DNA of 64,000 nt, from assembly GCA_964394305.1 (NCBI GenBank), contig CAYMWL010000021.1, positions 7,196 to 71,195 on the forward strand. Direction: 5' to 3'. The stretch is from an uncultured Pirellulaceae bacterium (GTDB taxonomy: Bacteria > Planctomycetota > Planctomycetia > Pirellulales > Pirellulaceae). The notes under the pieces were generated by a model. The model made no database searches. It saw only the letters and a list, made by a program, of their open reading frames with translations, and was not told the DNA's origin. Below, piece by piece: positions 2,640-46,423 of the stretch. The position numbers were made by a program, and so were the translations under genes. The number at the start of each line of letters is the position of its first letter. Within the stretch, counting starts at the first letter, position 1.

Positions 2640-3661
2640 TTGACGATCTGCGGCACGGGTGCCTGCCAGGTGGCATCAAGCACTTCTTTTCGTGGCCGAT
2701 ACAGTCGCAGCAAATAGTTCCAGCCTGGCGTGATCGGCAGCATATTTGGACTGTCCGGCTCGCCACCGAATTGAATCGTGACACTCCCATTGGCGCTGGG
2801 CTTGGCGGTGACGTTGTTCAGCGTGTATGCGTTCTGCGGATTCTTTTCAAAGAAGCCAGATTTATTGTAGACGCTGATCGACCAGAAGCCATCGACGGGA
2901 ACGTCTTTGAGCGTGATGCGATAGACGGTATTCCCATCATTCTTCGCAGGTGTCTCGGCAACATACATAGCCGCCGACTTCGGATTGCCACCCCATCCAG
3001 CCGCAGTTCCCAGCAAATGTTGCACGGGATCAACCTGGTCCTTGCGGCCGAACATGCGAGCCGAATCCAAGCCGCCGTTGGCTGTGGTCACGGCCAGCAA
3101 CGCCTCACGCATTCTCGTGAGCGAAACTTGGTCCCAATTCGGCACTACCAGCGAACCAGTGGCCTTTTGTTCGACCTTGATTGCGTCCTGTAACGCGTGC
3201 ACTGCCCTTACGTCGGCCTCATCGCCGGGATTCACGAAAATGCGGATTGCCAGGCAAACGTAGCGCGTACCGATCTTGTCTTTCGTCAGCGTGTGTGCTC
3301 CCGCCGCATAGATTACATCAATGGCGTAATGCTCTTCGTTAATGATCTGCAGGCTTAGAAAGCGTTTGCCGGAATCAGGCAGAGTGACGGTCACTTCGCC
3401 CGCATCGAGATCAAATACACCGAATGAATAAAGCGTGTCGCGATTCATGCGAATGACGCTTTGCCGGTCGATGGGGGCCAATCCGCGCTCGTGAGCAATC
3501 TTGCCGAAACCGCCCTCCTTGGCAAACTTCGTGAAGTAATTGTCGGTTTCCGCCTGCTTGAAGTTGTCGACCGTCACGTGAATCGACTTCGAATCTTGAG
3601 CGTTAGCGACACAGCAAAACGCCGTTACAGCGAGGATGGAAACAAAAGTACACAGATTCAT
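2636..3661 (-). CDS. DUF1254/DUF1214 domain exported protein
   Basis: Signal peptide; RMNRDTLYS (DUF1254) and VPVDGFWSISVYN...NYLLRLYRP (DUF1214); 4-bp overlap with the HAD gene. Confidence 0.88.
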   Translation of the reverse strand: MNLCTFVSILAVTAFCCVANAQDSKSIHVTVDNFKQAETDNYFTKFAKEGGFGKIAHERGLAPIDRQSVIRMNRDTLYSFGVFDLDAGEVTVTLPDSGKRFLSLQIINEEHYAIDVIYAAGAHTLTKDKIGTRYVCLAIRIFVNPGDEADVRAVHALQDAIKVEQKATGSLVVPNWDQVSLTRMREALLAVTTANGGLDSARMFGRKDQVDPVQHLLGTAAGWGGNPKSAAMYVAETPAKNDGNTVYRITLKDVPVDGFWSISVYNKSGFFEKNPQNAYTLNNVTAKPSANGSVTIQFGGEPDSPNMLPITPGWNYLLRLYRPRKEVLDATWQAPVPQIVN

Positions 3662-24838: not shown

Positions 24839-27214
24839 TTACGCATCGTCGCGGACAAACCAACCGAGCAGCAACGGCAGAATAATCAAGTTCCCTGCCA
24901 GGCCGCCGATCATCGCCAGGCTTACCAGCGCGCCGAAATATACGGTCGGAATGAACTCGCTAGTGCAGAGCACGAGAAATCCCAGGTCGAGCGTAAGCGT
25001 CGTAAAGAGCATCGCCCGACCGACGCTGCTTTGCACTTCGGCGAGCGCATCGGCGACGGATTTTCCCAGGCGCCTTGCGTGTAGGAATGTATCGAGATAG
25101 TGAATCGAGCTGTCGACGGACAGGCCCATCGAAACGGCAGCGATCATCGCGGCGCCCATATTGATTCGCAGGCCGATCCAACCGATCAGGCCCATCACTA
25201 GAAAGATCGGTACGACGTTCGGCACGATGCCGATCACTGCCAGTTTGAAACTTCTAAAAATGACGAGCATGATGAATCCCATCGCCGCGGTCGCTACCGC
25301 GAATGTCATCCACTGATCGCGGAGCATGCTTTCGATCAAACTGGTGAGCAGCACGAAGAAGCCAGTCACCTCGGCGCCACTGCGTGGGTCGTTGCCTTTT
25401 GCCGGCAACGGAAATTCTTCGAGCGCAATCGTGCGCACCTGTTCGATCAGCCAACGTTTTTGTTCTGCCGACTGCCGTTCGCGAGCACGCAGCATGATTC
25501 GCAATCGACTTGGTTCCTTTTTCTCATCGGGAACCGAGCGAAGTGCGGCGGTAAAGACCGGCAGCTCTTCCATCATTTTTTGGATTTTGAAATCAATGGT
25601 CAGCGGCACCATTGACAGAAGCCCATCGACTTTAACCTCATCAATGGCATCGACTAGGCTGATGACTTTCGTCAATCCCGGTCGTGCTGCCTCCGTGTCG
25701 GTTGCTGGGAATTCGATCGCCCGTAGCCGCGTTTGCAACTTGCGCACGCGGTCGAGATACGCTTCGTCGAGCTTTCGCGGCGCGGGAATCATCACATCCC
25801 ATACACCCGCGCCACCGAGTCGCGTCTCGACGAACTCATACGACTTCACGACGTCGCTATCCGAATGAAAGTTGCGGGTGAAATCGGTTTCAACATCGAG
25901 TCGCAGCGTGCCAAACGCAATGAAGATGCCAAGCAACGTAATGACGATAGCGGCGGCAACCTGACGCGCTCGTAAAAACGCAAGCAGATCCGACAGGCCG
26001 CGGTGTAGCTGCCGGTCAATCCATGAGGTGTGCGCTGCTGTACTAGCGTTTGACGGTGTCGTTTCTTTTTGGCGAATGCCCAGTAACGAGATCGCCGGAA
26101 GCAGCAATGTAATCGCCGGGATGACCATCAGCGAGCCGATGAACATCATTGTGCCGAAGTCTTGGACGGGGCCGACCTTCGCCGACCAAAGAGAACCAAA
26201 GCCGCCGACGTCGGTGGCGATGGCGCCGGCAATGGGAATCGCCAGCGCCAGAATCGAAGTGCGAAACGCAGTGTATTTCGCGACGCCTTCGGCTTCGAGT
26301 TCGCGGCAGCGCACGATTAAGTGCACGACGCTCGCGACACCAACGACCGTGATGATTGCCGAGAGCATCGAACTGACCATGGTCAATTCCAACTGCGTCC
26401 AAACGAGCGTCGCTTGAGTGAGGAGCAACGCCCAGTTGACGACCGCCAGTGGTGCGATGAGCCAGCGGAAGCTGAAGAAGCAAACAACGACGGTTACCGC
26501 GAGCATGATCGTCGACCAGAGCCACAGCCGGCGGCCATCTTTTTCGAGCATGTCAAACCCTTCGACGACCATGACCGGTTCGCCAGCGAGCACGCCTCGT
26601 TGCAGTCCAGCGGGCAGATCTTTCACAATTGCGCGGAGCGAATCGATGGTGTTATTGCGGCGGCGCGCATCGAGTGCCTTCCCAGGTTGCGGCGGCTCGA
26701 GCATGCAAGCGAACGCGGCCGTCTTCTGATCGGGCCCATGGGTGTAACCCTCGAACAGCGCCAGAAAGTTCTGCGCCGTTTGATTGTTTACATCAACCAG
26801 CGGCGGGCTTTTCCGTTTGGGTTTCGTAACGTTGAATGCCTCGATCTTGGCAACGAGCGTGTTGATCTCTGCCAGGCTGAGCACATCGCGGACGCCGTCG
26901 ACTTTTTCCAAGCGGTCGCGAACGGCAGCCACGCGCTGCAAACCACTCCCATCAGGTTCGAGGAGTTTTGGGTCGGCATAAACGGCCAGGACAATTTCAT
27001 TGCCGCCGAATTCGGTCTTTAGCCGGTTATACGGTGCGAGCAGCGGATCGTCGGAAGCAAACATCCGCTCGACACTACGGTCGAACTTTACGCGCTGCGC
27101 TGCGGGGTAGGCAATCGCGGCGACGATCAGAGCAATAGTCAGCCAAATCCAGCGGCCTCGCAGATAGTAATCGACAATGCGATTTGACAGGCTGGCTCCC
27201 GGCGGTGATGACAT
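24839..27214 (-). CDS. MMPL/RND family transporter
   Basis: Two repeats of TM + large periplasmic loop + 5 TM; AGEPV; GLSVDSSIHY. ATG at 27214 preferred over TTG at 27244. Confidence 0.88.
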   Translation of the reverse strand: MSSPPGASLSNRIVDYYLRGRWIWLTIALIVAAIAYPAAQRVKFDRSVERMFASDDPLLAPYNRLKTEFGGNEIVLAVYADPKLLEPDGSGLQRVAAVRDRLEKVDGVRDVLSLAEINTLVAKIEAFNVTKPKRKSPPLVDVNNQTAQNFLALFEGYTHGPDQKTAAFACMLEPPQPGKALDARRRNNTIDSLRAIVKDLPAGLQRGVLAGEPVMVVEGFDMLEKDGRRLWLWSTIMLAVTVVVCFFSFRWLIAPLAVVNWALLLTQATLVWTQLELTMVSSMLSAIITVVGVASVVHLIVRCRELEAEGVAKYTAFRTSILALAIPIAGAIATDVGGFGSLWSAKVGPVQDFGTMMFIGSLMVIPAITLLLPAISLLGIRQKETTPSNASTAAHTSWIDRQLHRGLSDLLAFLRARQVAAAIVITLLGIFIAFGTLRLDVETDFTRNFHSDSDVVKSYEFVETRLGGAGVWDVMIPAPRKLDEAYLDRVRKLQTRLRAIEFPATDTEAARPGLTKVISLVDAIDEVKVDGLLSMVPLTIDFKIQKMMEELPVFTAALRSVPDEKKEPSRLRIMLRARERQSAEQKRWLIEQVRTIALEEFPLPAKGNDPRSGAEVTGFFVLLTSLIESMLRDQWMTFAVATAAMGFIMLVIFRSFKLAVIGIVPNVVPIFLVMGLIGWIGLRINMGAAMIAAVSMGLSVDSSIHYLDTFLHARRLGKSVADALAEVQSSVGRAMLFTTLTLDLGFLVLCTSEFIPTVYFGALVSLAMIGGLAGNLIILPLLLGWFVRDDA

Positions 27215-27240
27215 GGCTTCCGTTATACAGGCGAACCGCT

Positions 27241-29049
27241 TCAAGGTGCCATTGGGGCAGGAGCGGCTGCTGCAGGCACTGGTTTGTCGGCCGGCTTGGC
27301 CGGTTCCACCGTTTCGGCTTCTGCTTCCTTCTTTTCCTTTTGAGCAACCTTCCGTTCGGTTCGCTTGGCTTGTTTGACAAGCTTGGGAACGAGCTTGTTC
27401 AATTCTTCCGCAGGAATTGCATAGGTAGTCACTCGCCCCGCGCGGGCGATGTTCACGCCCACGACCTTGCCGTCGAGATCAAGCAGCGGGCTGCCGCAGG
27501 CTTGCGGAATGATCGCCGTGTCGTGTGCAAAGACGGCTGGAAAGCCTGCGCGACGCACACTGAGGTCGCCCGAATATTCTTCGTCTTCGTCGACAAACAG
27601 CACGAGTTCCAACTTCACATCTAGTTCTTTGTCGGCCCTCCTCAGCTTCACTCCCACTTGCTGGCCGGGCTTCGTTTTTTCCATGTGTTCAAACAGGGCC
27701 TCTGCATCGGCGATCTTCTTGCCTTCGAATTCGACCAGGCAGTCATCGACGCGAATGCCGGCTTTCGCCGCCGGGCCACCGAAGATGACTCGCTTGATCT
27801 TCACGCCGCCATCGTCGGCATCGGCGACTTCCACTTTCATGGCGCCACGCGGCGGCGACGTCGGCTCGACCTTGCAGACCGCATTGCTGACGACACCGAG
27901 CGACAATGGCGTGGCGTCGATATCCGGGGTGATCAGCCACGCGCCGGGTAGCGGCGATTTTTCGGCGAAAGTGACGGGCTTTAACTTGGGCGCAGCTTCG
28001 ATTTGTAGCAGCGCCAGATCGTGCTCTTCGCTGCGGGCGACAATCTTGGCCGCGAGCGGTTCGTCGTCGATGAGGCACTGAAGATCGCCTTGCAACACGC
28101 TCAGCTTTGTCATGATCAAGCCCCGGCGATTGACGGCCAGGCCCATGGCGACCGCATTTTCATCGGCGAGAACGTCGACAATCGAACGCTGCAGCGGCGA
28201 TGTGAGTGGCTCCACACTGCCCAGCGTTTCGGCGCTATCCTTCGCCAATCCATACCAATCGGGCGCATCGACAAACCAACTGGCAACGATGTCGTAGAAC
28301 GAAAGAATGGAATCCGGAATGAAGTTCAACAATTCGAATGCCGCGTCATAAGCCTCGGGATCGAAGGGTTCGCCGATTTCTTTGCTGGCGACGAAGTCGT
28401 CCCAGTTCTTTTGATAGATCTCGACCGGCACATGCTGATTCTCGAGGACATCGAGGCCGATGTTGGAATGAATGCCGATGACTTCGCCCTGCAAATTGAA
28501 CAGCGGGCCGCCCGAATCGCCGGGATATACCGTGGCATCGGTCTGCAGTCCCGCGAGTGGGTCGCTGCCATCGCCCACGACCAAAATTCGCCCCAGCCGC
28601 AGCGGCGGCTTGCGATCTTTGAAGATGCCGCCCGGATGCCCCGTCGCTAAGCACCATTCGCCGGCTTTGGGTTTGTCTTTGGCCATTTTTACATGCGGCC
28701 ACTTTTCATCTTTTTGGATTTTGGCGAGGCCCGCGTCCCACGCATGGTCCATGCCGAGCGACTTCGCCTTCACCTTGCGACCGTCGCTGAGTTCCACCTC
28801 AAAGATATCGCCCGGCACCATGATCACATGCGCGGCTGTGAGGATGTAACCATCATCGCTCACGATGACGCCGCTGCCGGAGGAGTCTTCCAGATGAATG
28901 CCGACGGTGGCGGCGATCATCTGATCGAGATGCTGGCGCGTTTGCTCTTGGGCCTTTTTCAAATCGGCGAGCGATGGTGGTTCGGCTGCCGCCGTAGCCA
29001 ACATTACGAAAGCTAGACACGCGGCGCCGAAGAATTTGCCGAACTTCAT
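27241..29049 (-). CDS. Exported trypsin-like serine protease with a second degenerate protease domain and PDZ
   Basis: Domain 1 has the full triad (LTAAHV, DAGL, GDSGGP). Domain 2 has TKLS, DLALL, QACGSP and is split by a PDZ (GGPAAKAGIRVDD). Start 29049 follows a GGGGAG RBS-like sequence. Confidence 0.88.
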   Translation of the reverse strand: MKFGKFFGAACLAFVMLATAAAEPPSLADLKKAQEQTRQHLDQMIAATVGIHLEDSSGSGVIVSDDGYILTAAHVIMVPGDIFEVELSDGRKVKAKSLGMDHAWDAGLAKIQKDEKWPHVKMAKDKPKAGEWCLATGHPGGIFKDRKPPLRLGRILVVGDGSDPLAGLQTDATVYPGDSGGPLFNLQGEVIGIHSNIGLDVLENQHVPVEIYQKNWDDFVASKEIGEPFDPEAYDAAFELLNFIPDSILSFYDIVASWFVDAPDWYGLAKDSAETLGSVEPLTSPLQRSIVDVLADENAVAMGLAVNRRGLIMTKLSVLQGDLQCLIDDEPLAAKIVARSEEHDLALLQIEAAPKLKPVTFAEKSPLPGAWLITPDIDATPLSLGVVSNAVCKVEPTSPPRGAMKVEVADADDGGVKIKRVIFGGPAAKAGIRVDDCLVEFEGKKIADAEALFEHMEKTKPGQQVGVKLRRADKELDVKLELVLFVDEDEEYSGDLSVRRAGFPAVFAHDTAIIPQACGSPLLDLDGKVVGVNIARAGRVTTYAIPAEELNKLVPKLVKQAKRTERKVAQKEKKEAEAETVEPAKPADKPVPAAAAPAPMAP

Positions 29050-29485
29050 TTGCGAACTCCCCCAAGGCAGATTCTTCGCGGGCAAGATCCCTGCAAAGCG
29101 GCCTTGGAACTGTCCTGAAAATGCGAATCAACGTCCGTGCGGCGAGGGAGAGAAGCCGAGTTCGCCGCCGATCAATGCAGCGGCAAAACTCGCCTGCGCC
29201 AGGCTCCTATTGTGATCGGAGGTGTGTAATTTGCCAAGAAGAGTGTGACTGCGGCGGACTGCGGAGCGGCGATGTGACTTGAATTATGCCAGGAGATGTT
29301 GTCGCTTATCAGCCAACTTCTTCGGCAATTGCGCATTGACGACCGGCCGAACAGTATGCAATTGATGCGTACTCGCGGGCAAACGCCACAAGCGATCGTG
29401 CCTTACCCCAGTTTGACCGCCGCTGATGACACCATCAGGCGGTTAAACGCTATTTCTTGTTGCCCGAATTGCACGTCGGCCACCA

Positions 29486-29668
29486 GTTATCGCGACGTTT
29501 TAAAGCGATGCTTGAAGCCAAATGATGGGGTAATCACGATGAAATCTACCAGTGACAAAACACGTTGCGAAGGGTTATCGTGCTGTTATCACCGCCGCTC
29601 GCCGAATTGCTGTAAATCACAATCAGCAATGCGGTTGCGACATTCAAAAGCGGCTCGAAAGTGTTATC
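29486..29668 (-). other. Non-coding GATAAC-box element, copy A
   Basis: GTTATC on the plus strand at 29486, 29574, 29585 and 29663; aligns with 45114-45299. Confidence 0.7.
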
Positions 29669-29706: not shown

Positions 29707-31083
29707 CTACCTGGGAGCTTCTGGCGGCGACTCGAGAATGGCGCGCTTGGCATCGAAGGGATTGCCGAGTGGATCGAGCAGTGCTTCGGTGATTCGGCGG
29801 CGGCGGACTTTGCGGACCTGAGCCCAGAGGCCGTCGAGTTCAACCATATCGCCACCCTTGAGGTTGTCGTCGCGGCCGGCGTTAAGCCAATCGTTGAGGG
29901 TCATGGCATCGGGGTTATCGCCGCCGAGTTCGGGGCGATTGAGTTGCGTGCGGAGTTGTGCGAGCGTCACTCCGCCACCCACGACCAGTTGCTGGCCGGC
30001 AGGGCTGATGTGCCGCGGCAGGCGATCGAATTCGTCCTGAATATCGCCGACCAGTTCTTCGAAAATATCTTCCTGCGTGATCATGCCGACGATGCGGCCA
30101 CCTTCGCCACGGACCAGGGCCAAGTGCTGGTGTTCGGTCGTCATGCGGCGGAGGGCTTCGCTGAGCGTCATGTTTTCCGACAGGCTGCTGATCTGGCGGA
30201 CGATTTCACGGATGACTGGATTGCCCGGATGCGTCTTGGCGAGCAGCACCATGTCTTTGAACGTGACATAGCCGATGATCTTTTGCGGGTCGCCCCGCTG
30301 CACGGTCACCGGAAACCGCGTGTGCAAGTCCATGTGGGCGATGATCAGGTTTTCGCTCAGCGTGGCGTCGGCGACGACCATCACGATGTCTTCTTCGGGA
30401 AGCATGATGTCGGCGACCTTCATCGCCGACAGGCGACTCGCCTGCAAAATGATCCGCTCTTCTTGCATACCGATGGCCTGGCTGGCACGGAGCAAGTTTA
30501 CCTGGGCCCGCAGTTCATGCAGTCCGACGGCCCGGTGATCTTCTTTTTGCTTCATGAACGGCAGGCGTTCGACGAGAGCGACAAACTGCGTGGTAATGGA
30601 CTCGAAGAACCAGACGGCTGGATAAAAAATCACCGAAAAGACCCACATCGTGGGGCTGAGCAGCAAGCAGACGAGTTCGGCGTTTTTGAGCGCGAAGACC
30701 TTGGGGATGAGTTCGCCGACCACAATGGTGAACGCCGAGATCGGCAGCACTACGCAAGTGATGGCGACGAAATCGGCGAAGTCCTTGTGGATGCCAACCT
30801 TGGCGAGGACACCTTCGAAATAGGGTGCTAGACTTTCTTCGGCCGAAGCGCCACCGAGGGCTGCCGCGATGGCCCCAACCAGCGTGATGCCCAATTGCAC
30901 CGCGGCCAGGCTGGCTTCCATGCGACCCTTCATGCGGAGCGAGACGCCGGCACCGCGGCGTTTTTGCTCGGCTAGCAGTCGCAAACGGTCAGTCCGAACC
31001 GAGGCCAAAGCCAATTCATAAGCGGCGAACATGCCGTTGAGTAACAGCATGACGATGATGACCAAAACGACCGTAAGACTCAT
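29707..31083 (-). CDS. Hemolysin/CorC-HlyC (CNNM + CBS) family membrane protein
   Basis: LNGMFAAYELALASVR; VQLGITLVG; GELIPK; HTRFPV; EDIFEELVGDIQDEFD. Start MSLTVV at 31083. Confidence 0.9.
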   Translation of the reverse strand: MSLTVVLVIIVMLLLNGMFAAYELALASVRTDRLRLLAEQKRRGAGVSLRMKGRMEASLAAVQLGITLVGAIAAALGGASAEESLAPYFEGVLAKVGIHKDFADFVAITCVVLPISAFTIVVGELIPKVFALKNAELVCLLLSPTMWVFSVIFYPAVWFFESITTQFVALVERLPFMKQKEDHRAVGLHELRAQVNLLRASQAIGMQEERIILQASRLSAMKVADIMLPEEDIVMVVADATLSENLIIAHMDLHTRFPVTVQRGDPQKIIGYVTFKDMVLLAKTHPGNPVIREIVRQISSLSENMTLSEALRRMTTEHQHLALVRGEGGRIVGMITQEDIFEELVGDIQDEFDRLPRHISPAGQQLVVGGGVTLAQLRTQLNRPELGGDNPDAMTLNDWLNAGRDDNLKGGDMVELDGLWAQVRKVRRRRITEALLDPLGNPFDAKRAILESPPEAPR

Positions 31084-31323
31084 TCCGCGCGATTTCCTGA
31101 AAGCCTTGAGGCAAAACGCCTTGGCAGCAGGATAATCGAAACCAAGGGATGGGATAAGGCGGGAGATTAGTGCGGGGGCATGTTCGCTGGAACGCCAAAA
31201 AGTGGCCCGACCAGAGAGGCGAGGGAGTGCAGGGTGAAGCATTCCCATCGCCAACCCTCGCGGCAGCAATATACTTAAAAGGTCCACCTTATTTACGTTG
31301 CATGCTGTACTCCAGCAAAGGTT

Positions 31324-41295: not shown

Positions 41296-42048
41296 ATGAC
41301 AGAGCTGCCTCCACTAACTCCCGAAGAACGCCGTCGATACGAATGGCAACTTTGGGTCCCCGATTTCGGCGAAGCCGGCCAGCAGCGATTGAAAGCCGCG
41401 ACGGTTTTGGTTTCCCGTATCGGCGGCGTCGGTGGCACCGCCGCATTGCAACTCGCGGCGGCGGGAGTGGGCAGATTGATACTTGCCCACGGCGGCGAAC
41501 TGCGGCTCAACGATCTCAATCGCCAGTTGCTCATGACGACCGCGGGCATCGGCGTGCGACGAGTCGAACTCGCAACCGAGCGTTTGCGCGAACTCAATCC
41601 GCATGTCGAGATTGAAACCGTCGCCGAAAATTTCAGCGAAGCCAATGCGGCCGAACTCGTCAGTCGCTGCAATTTGATCATCAGCGCGGCGCCACTCTTT
41701 GCCGAACGAATGCTGATGAATCGCGAAGCGGTTCGCCAACGCAAGCCGCTCATCGACTGTGCGATGTACGAGCTGGAAGGTCGCCTGACGACGATCATCC
41801 CCGGCCAAACTCCCTGTCTCGCTTGCATGTATCCTGAGCCTCCGGTCAATTGGAATCGCGAATTCCCGGTATTCAGCGCGGTTTCATCAACTGTGGGATC
41901 GATGGCAGGCATGGAAGCAATCAAGTTGCTGGCGAGCTTGGGTGAACCGCTGGCGGGGCGACTCCTCGTTTTCGATTTGCGCGACATGAGCTTTCGCAAG
42001 CTCTCGATCGCGCGCCGCGCTGACTGTGCCGTTTGCGGGGAACTGTAA
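41296..42048 (+). CDS. HesA/MoeB/ThiF family adenylyltransferase, HesA-like
   Basis: RYEWQLWVPDFGEAGQQRLK; GGVGG; ILAHGGELRLNDLNRQ; LTTIIPGQTPCLAC; CAVCG. Confidence 0.9.
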   Translation: MTELPPLTPEERRRYEWQLWVPDFGEAGQQRLKAATVLVSRIGGVGGTAALQLAAAGVGRLILAHGGELRLNDLNRQLLMTTAGIGVRRVELATERLRELNPHVEIETVAENFSEANAAELVSRCNLIISAAPLFAERMLMNREAVRQRKPLIDCAMYELEGRLTTIIPGQTPCLACMYPEPPVNWNREFPVFSAVSSTVGSMAGMEAIKLLASLGEPLAGRLLVFDLRDMSFRKLSIARRADCAVCGEL

Positions 42049-42059
42049 GGAATAGGGCG

Positions 42060-45000
42060 ATGACCAATAAATTGCTGCCGCTGTTGCTGTATCTGTTCGT
42101 TGGGACCGCGACCGCCGCCGATTGGCCGATGTATCGCGGCGATGCGGAGCGAACTGGCTACACGGCTGAACCGCTCCCTGCGAAGCTGTCGCTGGTGTGG
42201 ACTTATCGTCCCACGCATCCGCCGACTCCGGCGTGGCCACGAGACGATCGCATGCTCTTTGATCGTGCCAGCGATGTGGTCATCAGCGGCGGCGTGGCAA
42301 TCTTCGGCAGTTCCAGCGATAGCCAGGTGATCGCGCTCGATGCTGCAACCGGCGCGCATCGGTGGACTTTTTTTGCCGATGCTCCCGTCCGATTCGCGGC
42401 GGCCATCTGGCACGACAAAGCGTTCATCGTGAGCGACGACGGCATGTTGTATTGCCTCGCGGTTGCTGACGGCAAATTGTTGAACCAATGGCGCGGCGGT
42501 CCCACCGATGACTTGATCCTCGGCAACGGCCGGATGGTTTCGCGCTGGCCCGCGCGCGGTGGACCTGTCATTCGCGATGACATCGTCTATTTCGCCGCAG
42601 GCATCTGGCAGTCGGAGAGAATCTATCTGACTGCGATCAACGCGGAGACCGGCAAACAGATTTGGCAGAATGACAAGGCGGGGCAGATCTACATGCCGCA
42701 GCCGCACGGCGGCGCGATGGCCAACAGCGGTGTGTCGGCGCAGGGCTATCTGGTGGCGAATGACAACGAGTTGATCGTGCCCACCGGCCGTGCAGTCCCT
42801 GCCGGTTTCGCGCGGCGGAGTGGTGAGTTTCTTTACTATCACTTGCAAGCCAACGGACACATCGGCGGCACACAGACGGTCGTGGCCGATGACACGTTCT
42901 ACAACGGTGGCTCGGCGTTTCGAAACGAAAATGGCGCGCTCGTGGCCAAGTTGGGAGTTGGATCGATCGCGGCAACTCCAGCCGGCACGTTGTTTGGCAC
43001 GAAGAAAGATGTGCGGCTCGTCAAATTGATCGAGAAGACTGCGCCCGATCGCAAAGGGGTACCGACGAAAACAATGGACCACCAGGTGGAATGGTCCGTT
43101 GCTGATGTCGACGGCAGCGCGTCCCTCATTGTTGCTGGCCACGTCGTCGTCGCCGGAGGCAGCATTAGCGGAGGCAACGGCAAGGTGACAGCCATCGATG
43201 TGCAGTCGCAAAAAATACTCTGGTCCGCAGAAGTCGCGGGCATTCCGTATGGTTTGGCCGCAGCGAATGGCAAACTCTATGTCAGCACCGATCGCGGCGA
43301 AATTCATTGCTTTGCAACAGAAGCGAGTTCCAAACCAGCAGTTATTACTCTGCCGCAAACAAAGATCGTTGCGAATGCCCAAGCGACGAAGGCTGCGCAG
43401 GAGATCCTGCGGAAAACGAGCGTCACTGAAGGATTCTGCCTCGATCTCGATTGCGACGACGGCGAATTGGCCGTTGCCTTGGCTCAGCAATCGAAGTTGC
43501 AAATCTATGCCGTTCATTCCAGCGCTGAAGATGTCGCCGCGTTGCGAAAAAAGTTGGCCGCGGCCGGCTTGTACGGCACTCGCATCACTGTACATCAAGG
43601 CACCCGTGACAAGCTCCGCTACGGCAAGTACTTTGCGGACCTCGTGGTTTCCAGCCAATCGCTGAAGTCGGGACCAATCCCCTCGACGGCAGATAAGATT
43701 CCCTCGGCGCTTCGACCTGCTGGCGGGCAACTCTGCTCCGGCAAGGTTGGCAACATGGAAACGTTCCAACGCCCCGCCCTTGCTCGTGCGGGGAGTTGGA
43801 CGCATCAATACTCCGATCTCGGCAATAGCAGTTGCTCGACCGATGAGATTGTGAAAGGTGACTTGCGGGCCCTCTGGTTTCGCGATGTGGATCTCGAAAT
43901 GCCGCAACGGCATGGCCGCGGTCATGCGCCGCTGTTTCAAGACGGCCGAATGTTTGTCGAAGGAATGGGTGCCCTCCGCGCGGTCGATGGTTACAACGGC
44001 CGCAACTTGTGGGAGTTCCCGCTGCCGAACATTCAAGCTGCGTACAATGCCGACCATCTGTCGGGAACTTCGGTGACTGGCAGCAATTTCTGCGTGGCCG
44101 ACGGCAACGTGTATGTGCACGACAAGTTGCAATGTTACCGTCTCGATGCCGCAACTGGTCGCAAACTGGGGGAATTCAAGACGCCCGTCAATAAGGACCG
44201 CAAGCCTGGTTCGTGGGGCTATATCGCCAGCGACGGCAAGTTGCTGTTTGGCTCGGTCGCCAATCCGCAGCATGTTGCTCGCTTTGCTTGGAAGTTCGCC
44301 GATGTGAGCGAGTTGTGGGGCGAATCGGCGACGTTTTTCGCGCTCGATGCCAAGTCCGGCGAACTGCGCTGGAAATACGACGCCGAGGAATCGATCCGTC
44401 ACAATGCGATCACGATCGGCAACGGCCACGTTTATTTGATCGACCGCGCCATCGCCAAAGAAGACAAGCTGACAACGGTCGACAAGGCCGGTAAGTTGCC
44501 GGCCGTCGCGGCGGTGAAGCATTCGCCGGGACAGATCGTCGCGCTCGATATCAATACGGGAGAGATTGCTTGGAAAGGGGAACGCGATGCCTTCGGCACT
44601 GTTCTCTCGCTTAGTCCGCAGCACGACACGCTGCTGATGAGTTATCAATCGACGCGGTTCAAGTTGCCTTCGGAAGTCGGCGGCAAGTTGGCTGCCTATC
44701 GCGCAAGCACGGGCAAACCTCTGTGGCAAAAAGAAGCCAAGTACGTTACCCGTCCGCTGATTAACGATCGCACCATCTACGCCCAAGGAGGCTCTTGGGA
44801 TCTGATCACTGGCGAAGAAAAAGGCTTCACGTTGAACCGCTCGTACGGCTGCGGACAGTTCGCGGGCTCGAAGCACATGCTGCTGTTCCGTTCCGCAACA
44901 CTTGGCTATTTGGACCTGTCTCGCGGCTCGGGCGTCGAAAACTACGGTGGTATCCGCCCCGGCTGTTGGATCAACGCGCTTCCCGTCGGCGGCCTGGTGC

Positions 45001-45083
45001 TGGTGCCCGATGCCTCGGCGGGCTGTGCCTGCAGCTATCAGAATCGAAGTTGGATGGCGCTGTCGGGGACGGGGGATGAGTGA
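42060..45083 (+). CDS. Exported PQQ-binding-like beta-propeller protein with central methyltransferase-like domain
   Basis: Signal peptide + DWPMYRGD; Trp-docking repeats (ALDAATG..RW); LDLDCDDG insert; second propeller starting WTHQYSD; C-terminal YGCG, RPGCW, GCACSY. Confidence 0.85.
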   Translation: MTNKLLPLLLYLFVGTATAADWPMYRGDAERTGYTAEPLPAKLSLVWTYRPTHPPTPAWPRDDRMLFDRASDVVISGGVAIFGSSSDSQVIALDAATGAHRWTFFADAPVRFAAAIWHDKAFIVSDDGMLYCLAVADGKLLNQWRGGPTDDLILGNGRMVSRWPARGGPVIRDDIVYFAAGIWQSERIYLTAINAETGKQIWQNDKAGQIYMPQPHGGAMANSGVSAQGYLVANDNELIVPTGRAVPAGFARRSGEFLYYHLQANGHIGGTQTVVADDTFYNGGSAFRNENGALVAKLGVGSIAATPAGTLFGTKKDVRLVKLIEKTAPDRKGVPTKTMDHQVEWSVADVDGSASLIVAGHVVVAGGSISGGNGKVTAIDVQSQKILWSAEVAGIPYGLAAANGKLYVSTDRGEIHCFATEASSKPAVITLPQTKIVANAQATKAAQEILRKTSVTEGFCLDLDCDDGELAVALAQQSKLQIYAVHSSAEDVAALRKKLAAAGLYGTRITVHQGTRDKLRYGKYFADLVVSSQSLKSGPIPSTADKIPSALRPAGGQLCSGKVGNMETFQRPALARAGSWTHQYSDLGNSSCSTDEIVKGDLRALWFRDVDLEMPQRHGRGHAPLFQDGRMFVEGMGALRAVDGYNGRNLWEFPLPNIQAAYNADHLSGTSVTGSNFCVADGNVYVHDKLQCYRLDAATGRKLGEFKTPVNKDRKPGSWGYIASDGKLLFGSVANPQHVARFAWKFADVSELWGESATFFALDAKSGELRWKYDAEESIRHNAITIGNGHVYLIDRAIAKEDKLTTVDKAGKLPAVAAVKHSPGQIVALDINTGEIAWKGERDAFGTVLSLSPQHDTLLMSYQSTRFKLPSEVGGKLAAYRASTGKPLWQKEAKYVTRPLINDRTIYAQGGSWDLITGEEKGFTLNRSYGCGQFAGSKHMLLFRSATLGYLDLSRGSGVENYGGIRPGCWINALPVGGLVLVPDASAGCACSYQNRSWMALSGTGDE

Positions 45084-45113: not shown

Positions 45114-45374
45114 GATAACACTTTTTGTGTCTGCTTGAAAGTTGCAACGGGTGAATTGCGCAATACTTGCGCATGAACAGGGAACAAGTTTGATAACATC
45201 GCGACCCTGGTTTCGGAGGACCGAAAACCGACGCAAGCGGTGTTTTATTAAGGACTTATGTCGCAGTCGGCATATCTTCGTTGTTAACATCGCGATAACC
45301 CGTGATAACCACTGACAAGTGCTCAATAAGCCTTCGTGCCAATTTGATAACGCTCTCTGATAACACCTGATAAC
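45114..45374 (+). other. Non-coding GATAAC-box element, copy B (convergent intergenic region)
   Basis: GATAAC at 45114, 45192, 45294, 45304, 45346, 45359 and 45369, plus GTTAAC at 45283; all on one strand. Confidence 0.75.
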
Positions 45375-45537
45375 AGGCTCCCGCCGCCAATTGCCGCAGT
45401 GCTTGGTGAAGCGCGCAGCAACAACCAGCCTCAGGCACGTCTAGCGCCAGGGTGATGGATATCTGATCTTTTGTATATATTGCCCAGATCCCAGGGCACG
45501 TCAAGATTGGCTGGCCAATTACACCTGGAATTAGCAG

Positions 45538-46218
45538 CTAGTTCCCTGGCACTCGCGCCGTTTCCACGCGCGGCGGAATGAGCAGCGTTACGCCCAGCGG
45601 CAAGATCTCGGGATCCGCGAGGCGATCGAGATTGGCCACGTGGATTTCTCCCGCGCGGCCGCCATCGCCTAGATAGCGTTGCGCTAAAGCAGTCAGCGTG
45701 TCCCCTTCGACGATACGATGTTTCCGCCACAGCGGACCTGGTTTGGCTTGAGCTTCTTTGGCCGCAGCAACCTCATCGGCCGACGGGAGTAAGGGTTCAT
45801 GCACCGGCAAGTTCGTGTTGGGACCGTGGCTGATTTTGGTCGGACCGGGCACTTGCGGCGAAGAACCGGGATCCGAGCCCACCGGCACGAGCAGCGATTC
45901 GTACGACATGGGTAAGAACGGCGGCGCGGGCAATGCTTCCAGCGGCGGTTCTGTGGCCGGCACGGTTTGAAATGCGGCGGGCCGTGTCAACCGCCCCGGA
46001 GAAGTAGAAACCGGTGGCAGTTCTGGAGCAGGCGACTGACCGGGCTGCGAATGAACTTGCAGCGTCAAATCCTGCGGCGGCGACCAGGTGAGCGCGGGGC
46101 TCTCGTGATCGACGGACAAGGGCTGCGGCGCGACGGGCCGCGCATGACGAAAGGGCCACGCGAGCGCCACGCCGCCGGCCATCACCGCGCCGGCAATGAC
46201 AAATCGTTTGTAACTCAC
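45538..46218 (-). CDS. LysM peptidoglycan-binding protein
   Basis: N-terminal TM, Pro-rich linker, C-terminal LysM (HRIVEGDTLTALAQRYLG...N...L.DP..LPLGVTLLIP). GTG start at 46218 preferred. Confidence 0.85.
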   Translation of the reverse strand: MSYKRFVIAGAVMAGGVALAWPFRHARPVAPQPLSVDHESPALTWSPPQDLTLQVHSQPGQSPAPELPPVSTSPGRLTRPAAFQTVPATEPPLEALPAPPFLPMSYESLLVPVGSDPGSSPQVPGPTKISHGPNTNLPVHEPLLPSADEVAAAKEAQAKPGPLWRKHRIVEGDTLTALAQRYLGDGGRAGEIHVANLDRLADPEILPLGVTLLIPPRVETARVPGN

Positions 46219-46423
46219 AGCACCGCTCCACGCACAACTTGCTTGGAACGGCCTTGTTCCGCAGCGATCAACGCCTTTGGGATAGATTCCGCAGCAAATT
46301 CCCACACTGCGGCAACTCGCTTTCGCGGCGAGCTGATTCGTCCGTGGCTGTCATCGGCGCGTGCGAGCGTGCGGAGCGAATGATTTTTCGCGCAGCGAAA
46401 GTACCGCTAAAGAGCGAAGAGTT

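Follow-up and report, generated by a model that had tools for sequence, protein, structure and literature searches.

Two intergenic elements, called here copy A and copy B, lie in a stretch of 64,000 nucleotides (the window; contig CAYMWL010000021.1, positions 7,196 to 71,195) from an uncultured planctomycete of the genus Anatilimnocola (Pirellulaceae), whose assembly, hereafter the source genome, comprises 7.96 Mb in 162 contigs with 57.8% G+C. Both are built of repeated GATAAC boxes. Their similarity, first noticed in a first-pass annotation of the window, is real, and that observation is confirmed; it consists of short boxes at matched distances and not of continuous homology, which agrees with the earlier opinion that no recent duplication is involved. 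With moderate confidence, copies A and B can be placed in a genus-restricted family of modular, non-coding intergenic cassettes, carrying operator- or iteron-type arrays for a putative DNA-binding protein that would gate the read-through of promoters. The cassette family is apparently undescribed: a literature search returned nothing on the GATAAC motif or on repeats in Anatilimnocola, and no Rfam entry matches it, in line with the earlier remark that it was not recognised as any named element.

Copy A spans 29486-29668 on the minus strand and has four same-strand GATAAC boxes at 0, 78, 89 and 177 bp (29663-29668, 29585-29590, 29574-29579 and 29486-29491), while copy B spans 45114-45374 on the plus strand and has seven, at 0, 78, 180, 190, 232, 245 and 255 bp (starts 45114, 45192, 45294, 45304, 45346, 45359 and 45369), both arrays being recognized by direct reading and by a profile from which they had been left out. 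Each begins with the head of what is termed below module I. In copy A (29634-29668, minus strand), the head reads GATAAC ACTTT cgagccgctt TTGAATGTCGCAAC, that is, box 1 with its T-rich flank GATAACACTTT (29658-29668), a free 10-nt linker and the mid-block TTGAATGTCGCAAC (29634-29647). In copy B (45114-45148, plus strand), it reads GATAAC ACTTT ttgtgtctgc TTGAAAGTTGCAAC, with the same GATAACACTTT, again a free 10-nt linker and the mid-block TTGAAAGTTGCAAC at 45135-45148. Direct reading reproduces the matches reported before, namely 11/11 for GATAACACTTT, 0/10 for the spacer and 12/14 for TTGAATGTCGCAAC against TTGAAAGTTGCAAC, as well as the step of exactly 78 bp to the second GATAAC of each copy (29668 to 29590; 45114 to 45192) and the 15/19 identity of the last blocks, TTTAAAACGTCGCGATAAC at +177 in copy A and TTGTTAACATCGCGATAAC at +180 in copy B. 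The head layout of copy A recurs in C75, C107, C160, C2, C104, C12 and C44.

The hexamer GATAAC occurs 24 times in the window, compared to 12.9 expected, and none of 100 shuffles reaches this count; 11 of the 24 fall within the two same-strand clusters that constitute copies A and B. A gapped local alignment of A against B scores 26, which is not above chance when compared to shuffled sequences (18 ± 2.5, maximum 30). However, an nhmmer profile built from seven other module-I genomic copies, with A and B excluded, retrieves both when the whole genome of about 8 Mb is searched, with E-values of 1.3e-10 for copy B and 7.4e-8 for copy A. This independent test is positive. The two outcomes that the first-pass annotation had named as refuting are answered, as many further copies exist and one cassette is conserved at an orthologous locus of three related species.

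The source genome contains at least 37 clusters of three or more boxes, 36 of them outside the called genes (an own crude codon-score caller was used for this genome and for the loci described below), although 85% of the genome is coding; this count is a minimum, since several arrays are close to the end of a contig. The conserved box extends over 7-8 bp, yTGATAAC(A/C/G), and is repeated three to seven times, mostly head-to-tail. The base preceding it is T in 73% of the clustered boxes versus 23% of the isolated ones, and the base following it is A in 53% versus 18%. Many clusters have in common one of two modules. In module I, about 10 free bases separate GATAACACTTTyg from ttgaaagtyGCAA, and the second box stands at 78-80 bp; module II consists of GTTATC-N12-GATAACGACCTGTTCGGGTGG... 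with another box at 67 bp. A few short blocks besides the boxes are conserved, with free linkers between them. Inverted boxes are likewise conserved parts of the modules, GTTATC-N12-GATAAC being found eight times and GATAAC-N1-GTTATC four times. Taken with the phasing and the locus conservation described below, these arrays, shared modules and flanks specific to clustered boxes support what had been suggested from A and B, a dispersed functional element with conserved boxes and spacing and free linkers.

Regarding the spacing, the distances between consecutive same-strand boxes in the source genome peak at 10-11, 20-22, 32, 42-44, 53, 67 and 78-80 bp, 67 and 78-80 bp being the fixed long distances. 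Spacings of 8-60 bp follow a best period of 10.6-10.8 bp with phase 0 (Rayleigh R 0.59, n 65, p ~2e-10), an R value that none of 2000 null sets attains. As this period is the helical repeat of B-DNA, it suggests a protein bound on one face of the duplex, and direct repeats in helical phase are a property that the arrays share with plasmid-type iterons. A coding function was rejected, since the sole open reading frame (ORF) across copy B, of 82 amino acids (45256-45504, minus strand), meets the boxes in different frames. Moreover, matches among the small ORFs of array-bearing gaps are spread over all six frames, so that the similarity between copies is at the DNA level only. A structured RNA was rejected on two negative results: Rfam has nothing at gathering score in the window, and relaxed searches (E<=5 for A and B, E<=0.01 for 12 cassettes) gave nothing relevant; RNAalifold gives no consensus fold for 11 A. 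aquadivae units, the energies of the two strands, -0.3 and -1.2 kcal/mol, falling inside the range obtained with shuffled columns.

The distribution of the family was followed with a tandem-pair pattern (GATAAC-N3-7-GATAAC), with the reversed pattern as control. The source genome (G000) has 20 pairs (control 1), a metagenome-assembled genome (MAG) of Anatilimnocola (G002) has 30 (0) and A. aquadivae NA78 (G003) has 251 (2); A. floriformis (G001), with 4 (2), and A. aggregata (G004), with 4 (0), are at background. With a stricter pattern applied to 150 Pirellulaceae genomes of 126 genera, more than one match is seen only in the source genome (7) and in A. aquadivae (121), and in the other 148 genomes, from 125 other genera, matches stay at background and the family was not found. 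Eight contigs of the metagenome sample Ga0138256 carry the A. aquadivae-type unit; otherwise, the tandem-pair scan of metagenomes gave mostly chance matches in AT-rich DNA, the family being limited there to the Ga0138256 contigs. Collections of phages and plasmids hold no similar DNA, and an origin from either was discarded, with nothing relevant among those sequences. Judged from the genomes sampled, the family is patchy, belonging to only some species of one freshwater planctomycete genus, Anatilimnocola.

In A. aquadivae, the unit is stereotyped and spans 135 bp, reading TGATAACcacTTTTGATAACcTTTTcg.cgaTTTTTTcgcGATAACC, about 55 variable bases that include gTTGCGA, and then TGATAACCgTTTGATAACCA. 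There are 151 copies of GATAACCNNTTGATAAC, most of them reading GATAACCRTTTGATAAC, and units also stand in tandem multiples about 290 bp apart. The loci of this species were picked by the tandem-pair pattern, so that the pair is guaranteed and the other boxes are not. Among 19 copies compared, the best paralogous pairs are 71-76% identical outside the boxes, and the boxes are intact; one pair with 95% identity is a segmental duplication that includes the neighbouring gene. Such old copies with intact boxes are unlike the dead copies of a selfish element. Along the chromosome, the density of the arrays drops two-fold at 3-5 Mb (chi-square 16.6, 5 df). A replichore polarity of the KOPS, Chi or Ter type was rejected, as 79 are forward and 72 reverse, in mixed order.

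The conservation of one cassette can be followed at the ntrC-like locus, where it lies upstream of a gene for an NtrC-type sigma-54 regulator followed by mutL, and where it is present in A. aquadivae, in the metagenome species and in MAG G002, with promoter, array and gene in the same order and direction. The metagenome species and A. aquadivae are 83% identical over the aligned gene-plus-cassette stretch and 60% identical in the intergenic DNA, in which identity is complete over the boxes, the mid-block cagttaccg.gacaacc, TGAACAGCCGCCCG and the two promoter elements (-10 GATAAT and -35). As the linkers drift while boxes, spacing and promoter hexamers are kept, the retained cassette is under purifying selection on exactly those parts that define the family. 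In the source genome, the same two divergent genes are only 60 bp apart, G002 having about 500 bp more; A. floriformis holds a different hairpin insert at this place and A. aggregata holds none. Cassettes are thus gained and lost between species.

Promoters are associated with the arrays in a preferred geometry. In 13 of the 37 arrays of the source genome, a predicted near-consensus sigma-70 promoter (TTGACA-N16-18-TAnnAT) lies on the opposite strand, 136-272 bp past the last box, directed back through the array; the background is 6.7% for intergenic strands of 500 nt, and the other three combinations of side and strand give 1-3 of 37. Conversely, 9 of the 56 consensus promoters of this genome have at least two GTTATC within 650 nt downstream, and none has them upstream. 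Most A. aquadivae copies inspected have a near-consensus promoter about 140-460 bp from the far end of the array, with TTGACA-N17-GATAAT or AATAAT and an A/T-rich stretch upstream, and the short blocks TTGGTGGAAAG and GCTGCGCRGC stand between promoter and array. Past box 1 of 10 of the 13 promoter-bearing cassettes in the source genome, a gene starts within 25-230 bp in the same direction, the genes past such cassettes including ProRS, three DUF1501 genes, a sulfatase, a methyltransferase and a monooxygenase; overall, 23 of 33 arrays have box 1 turned towards the start of a gene. The neighbours are 3.8-fold enriched for DUF1501, DUF1549/DUF1553, sulfatase and FGE-sulfatase genes (11 of 66, versus 4.4% of the called genes), an enrichment that may reflect a shared regulon or merely the long gaps beside such genes. 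A paralogous gene family with a common upstream region was discarded because the neighbours are mostly unrelated, and a sigma-54 promoter in the mid-block (TTGCAA) because the GG at -24 is missing.

In the mechanism proposed for the cassettes, the boxes would be docking sites for one sequence-specific DNA-binding protein, which would sit on one face of the helix and either oligomerize along the array or bridge it. The bound array would then act as a protein-operated gate, a roadblock or a loop, on read-through from the promoter. The arrays would ride on cassettes that come and go, often bringing a strong promoter with them. Several observations weigh against this reading. The strict promoter test is passed by only 13 of the 37 arrays, and in the window itself copy A lacks an inward promoter, that of copy B being no more than a sub-threshold candidate. 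Of 19 A. aquadivae cassettes, just 6 are aimed at the start of a gene; the rest point into the 3' end of a gene, a group to which A and B also belong. The first three boxes of the A. aquadivae unit, at 0, 13 and 39 bp, are not helically phased. The neighbours of the arrays have no single functional theme. At the orthologous ProRS, AhcY, CNNM, htrA, LysM and PQQ sites of four congeners, the arrays of the source genome are absent, so any regulatory role would be dispensable or recent. The binder, the transcripts and the mode of spread are all putative. A search for a GATA zinc finger gave no match, and the control genomes likewise gave none.

Other explanations have to be weighed against a protein-bound array. 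That the boxes cluster by chance or through a compositional artefact, with no function, finds some comfort in the plain alignment of A and B, but is hardly credible given the excess of GATAAC in the window, the tandem pairs compared to their controls (20 vs 1 in the source genome, 251 vs 2 in A. aquadivae), the leave-out E-values, the spacing periodicity and the orthologous conservation, and it was refuted on these grounds. An element acting at the RNA level, in which repeated GUUAUC motifs in long 5' leaders or non-coding RNAs would be bound by an RNA-binding protein or an RNase, would explain why the arrays are found, in one sense, on the side that the associated promoters transcribe, and why most of them are single-stranded in orientation. 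It is nevertheless improbable, because a period of 10.6-10.8 bp with phase 0 is a property of B-DNA and not of RNA, inverted boxes are conserved parts of the modules, the 11 A. aquadivae units have no consensus fold and two thirds of the arrays have no detectable promoter. Equally improbable are architectural sites for a bending protein of the IHF/HU type, as in the RIP/BIME-1 and Correia elements. The IHF consensus, WATCAANNNNTTR, is matched exactly by the opposite strand (TATCAAacggTTA) of the 11-bp A. aquadivae tandem pair; the complement of GATAACCRTTTGATAAC, the commonest form of the 151 GATAACCNNTTGATAAC copies, also carries it, and A- and T-tracts flank the boxes. However, the fit is restricted to 11-bp pairs preceded by TT, it does not extend to copies A and B or to most arrays of the source genome (spacings of 9, 10 and 13 bp; cacGATAAC), and the IHF core leaves out two bases of the box, its invariant G and its final C. 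In addition, the specificity of planctomycete IHF/HU may differ from the consensus used.

Among the alternatives, the strongest is a non-autonomous mobile element, spreading by transposition or recombination; its boxes would bind the enzyme that moves it and serve its propagation and not the regulation of the host, effects on promoters being incidental. This possibility is tentative, though clearly above those just mentioned, and it overlaps with the operator-array reading in the form of a mobile carrier of operator arrays. It agrees with the copy number, which ranges among congeners from background (4) to 251 tandem pairs, with the absence of the family from the other sampled Pirellulaceae, with the missing arrays at the orthologous sites of seven genes, with the insertion-like pattern of presence at the ntrC-like locus, with the tandem multiples about 290 bp apart and with the occurrence of arrays in every type of intergenic gap and near contig ends. 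Against it, the unit has no terminal inverted repeats and ends in direct repeats of the box, and no target-site duplication is seen at the single junction compared (G000/G001 vs G002, at the ntrC-like locus). The sampled copies are old and yet their boxes are intact, unlike the result of neutral decay, no transposase tracks the arrays, and no similar DNA occurs in phage or plasmid collections. As to the features of known elements, the 19 A. aquadivae copies are not the near-identical products of recent bursts expected of miniature inverted-repeat transposable elements (MITEs), nor do they combine terminal inverted repeats with a target-site duplication; a conserved hairpin palindrome in the unit, as in REP/BIME (REPIN) elements, was not found either. 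The RAYT enzymes (Y1 transposases, PF01797) have 5-12 matches in each of the five genus genomes, including the two without arrays, and no array lies beside the PF01797 copies of the source genome; a link to RAYT was rejected, as its distribution does not follow that of the arrays. It was also considered whether A and B, which are in inverted orientation at a distance of 15.6 kb, could be the ends of a 16-kb transposon. This was rejected, since the interval contains housekeeping genes such as mfd, along with genes for a C25 peptidase, a solute-binding protein and others. Tn7- or Mu-type genes, PF08722 (TnsA) and PF09299 (C-domain of the Mu-type transposase), are present among the genus genomes only in A. 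aggregata, which has no arrays.

Compared with described repeats, the cassettes show partial likenesses. The BIME and RIP of enterobacteria, in which REP units are combined into mosaics with binding motifs for IHF or gyrase, are also dispersed and strictly extragenic, composed of a few short motifs, endowed with protein-binding sites and variable between relatives. Nevertheless, they are imperfect palindromes of about 35 bp in alternating orientation and linked to RAYT, whereas the GATAAC cassettes are direct repeats with no hairpin and no correlation with RAYT, and there is no sequence similarity between the two. The BOX elements of Streptococcus pneumoniae and the Correia elements of Neisseria are modular intergenic repeats with a variable number of modules, some with promoters or an IHF site, and some of them alter the expression of the next gene; the GATAAC cassettes, likewise, are often equipped with a strong promoter directed at the following gene. 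However, the stable hairpins, or terminal inverted repeats with TA duplication, of BOX and Correia were not seen in the cassettes, and the helically phased boxes of 6-8 bp have no counterpart in them.

The iteron arrays of plasmid origins and centromere-like arrays such as parC of R1 and sopC of F consist of short head-to-tail protein-binding boxes in helical phase with free linkers, and they often overlap a promoter that is shut by the bound protein. They occur once or twice per replicon beside the gene of their binder, whereas the GATAAC arrays number from 37 to more than 150 on the chromosome; neither Rep nor Par genes lie next to them, and plasmid collections contain nothing similar. In the source genome, the adjacent initiator and few loci of a plasmid iteron are replaced by at least 37 loci with ProRS, DUF1501 genes, sulfatases and others as neighbours. 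Regarding the tandem half-site operators of OmpR/PhoB-type response regulators, Pho boxes are 7-bp direct repeats with a 4-bp A/T spacer, and the A. aquadivae pair, GATAACC-GTTT-GATAACC, has exactly this 7+4+7 layout with a period of 11 bp, the commonest short spacing in the source genome being 10-11 bp. Pho boxes differ in being located at the -35 and in serving a themed regulon, while the GATAAC arrays, whose neighbours are unrelated genes, are either downstream of promoters or distant from them. The PhoB-type layout and the IHF match should be taken as leads only, and neither holds for A and B.

Two further types of binding sites were rejected. A Fur-type 7-1-7 box (TGATAATnATTATCA) does not account for the arrays, since TGATAACnGTTATCA occurs only four times and the boxes are direct repeats at least 9-13 bp apart and not contiguous. 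DnaA boxes (TTATCCACA) share only TTATC with the GATAAC box, and the gaps flanking dnaA in the source genome hold no GATAAC. The gap upstream of dnaA has CACCACA repeats instead of canonical DnaA boxes, and the genomes each carry, besides a gene for full-length DnaA, another and shorter DnaA-like gene (G000:C8:53784-55403 and C17:91053-91496; G003 at 7138194 and 103).

To our knowledge, nearly all described dispersed intergenic repeats of bacteria form hairpins (REP, BIME, ERIC, BOX, Correia, MITEs), and their bound partner is usually unknown. The GATAAC family differs in kind, with direct-repeat boxes in helical phase, a protein-binding signature. A broader proposal, rather unlikely at present, is that the cassettes are movable regulatory wiring, combining a strong promoter with an operator array for one lineage-specific DNA-binding protein. 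If so, the gain or loss of a cassette would recruit unrelated genes into a single genus-specific circuit, or free them from it, the genes rewired in this way being ProRS, the ntrC-like regulator with mutL, DUF1501/DUF1549 pairs and sulfatases, and the system would be a bacterial counterpart of the rewiring of eukaryotic regulons by transposable elements. In a variant, the arrays could be landing pads of a chromosome-organizing protein, because those of A. aquadivae thin two-fold over 3-5 Mb. If the binder proved to be a regulator, the family would offer a worked case of a bacterial regulon spreading via copies of a cis-element; if a recombinase, it would represent a new kind of non-autonomous element lacking inverted repeats. 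The system is tractable, as more than 150 copies are available in a cultured type strain, A. aquadivae NA78, and none is present in a cultured congener, A. aggregata.

Within the family, copies A and B are atypical members: both begin 31-39 bp past a stop codon, copy A has no inward promoter and copy B lies in a convergent gap with a weak candidate. Copy A starts 39 bp from the stop codon of a CNNM/CBS/CorC-type gene (29707-31287, minus strand), whose 3' end abuts box 1. Downstream in the same direction are genes for an HtrA-like trypsin/PDZ protease (27241-29085, minus strand) and then an MMPL transporter (24839-27244, minus strand). The earlier placement of copy A about 440 bp upstream of these genes was roughly right, the distance from its last box to the htrA-like start being 401 bp. 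In this interval, the promoter scan gives three sites versus 0.3 expected, and two sigma-70-like sites on the minus strand, 29312-29283 (with a TG extension) and 29237-29209, lie between copy A and the htrA-like start at 29085. They are likely the promoters of the protease-MMPL operon, and copy A is at least 174 bp upstream of both.

Copy B starts 31 bp past the stop codon of a gene for a PQQ beta-propeller and methyltransferase protein (42033-45083, plus strand), in a convergent gap of 454 bp on which a LysM-domain gene (45538-46305, minus strand) closes with its 3' end. A distal box, GCGCGCAGCAACAACC (45411-45426, plus strand), forms part of a near-palindromic GCTGCGCRGC block, which in other cassettes sits between promoter and array, has five array-linked copies in the source genome and occurs also in A. 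aquadivae copies. The weak candidate for an inward promoter is found on the minus strand at 45476-45504, with TTGACG (45504-45499), 17 nt and AATATA (45481-45476); it fell below the threshold of the promoter scan and is listed because 13 of 37 other arrays have a strong promoter at the same position and strand. In three congeners, the LysM gene has a different gene as neighbour, with a gap of about 60 bp. A conserved regulatory site belonging to the neighbours of A or B themselves was rejected, as there are no arrays at the htrA, CNNM, LysM and PQQ orthologues of the four congeners, whose gene order is too shuffled to define empty sites for A and B. Between 29707 and 46305 of the window, gene order relative to these relatives is broken at nearly every boundary examined, and a stretch of 3.3 kb in A. 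floriformis has its matches on three contigs of the source genome.

Some minor observations were made in the same genomes. At least 12 near-consensus promoters of the source genome have a palindrome-like insert between -35 and -10, TTGAC-N4-GTGAACAnnTGTATACAAT, with examples at C20:96798, C22:100041, C4:27420, C10:72, C18:92953, C80:244, C85:7812 and C111:15261. The insert GTGAACAnnTGTATACAAT resembles the cyanobacterial-type LexA box (RGTAC-N3-DGTWC), and it may mark an SOS-like or other single regulon. In A. aggregata, the Tn7-like TnsA and Mu-type transposase form a pair at 15.5-17.7 kb, and 17 dispersed matches to PF00308 (the DnaA ATPase domain) with identical scores were read as helper ATPases of the IS21 type (IstB-like); both were seen only in this congener.

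Other repeats were noticed in A. aquadivae as well. A further dispersed palindromic repeat, ccctctcctcggtacacgtggtactccac...gggtgagggg (L040:890-970), is present in all five genus genomes, with more than 40 places in MAG G002. A third repeat family, with long hairpins ggggtcggcgagtctttggcga...tcgccatagactcccgacccc (L044, L048, L049), flanks several cassettes, and repeated catctcgctccgccgagatga hairpins occur in L046 and L050. A tandem array with a 21-bp period and at least 11 units (G003:C1:4720071-4720312) is 97% identical to part of the ntrC-like region, and a hexanucleotide microsatellite (cctctggcc / cctggcc runs; L076:2000-2150, 5468300 region) directly follows a triple cassette. In the metagenome contig Ga0224510_10012172 (L184, 34% G+C), positions 2874-3341 contain 14 tandem-pair matches with a 21-bp period, which, in this unrelated AT-rich DNA, looks like an iteron-type tandem array of another organism.

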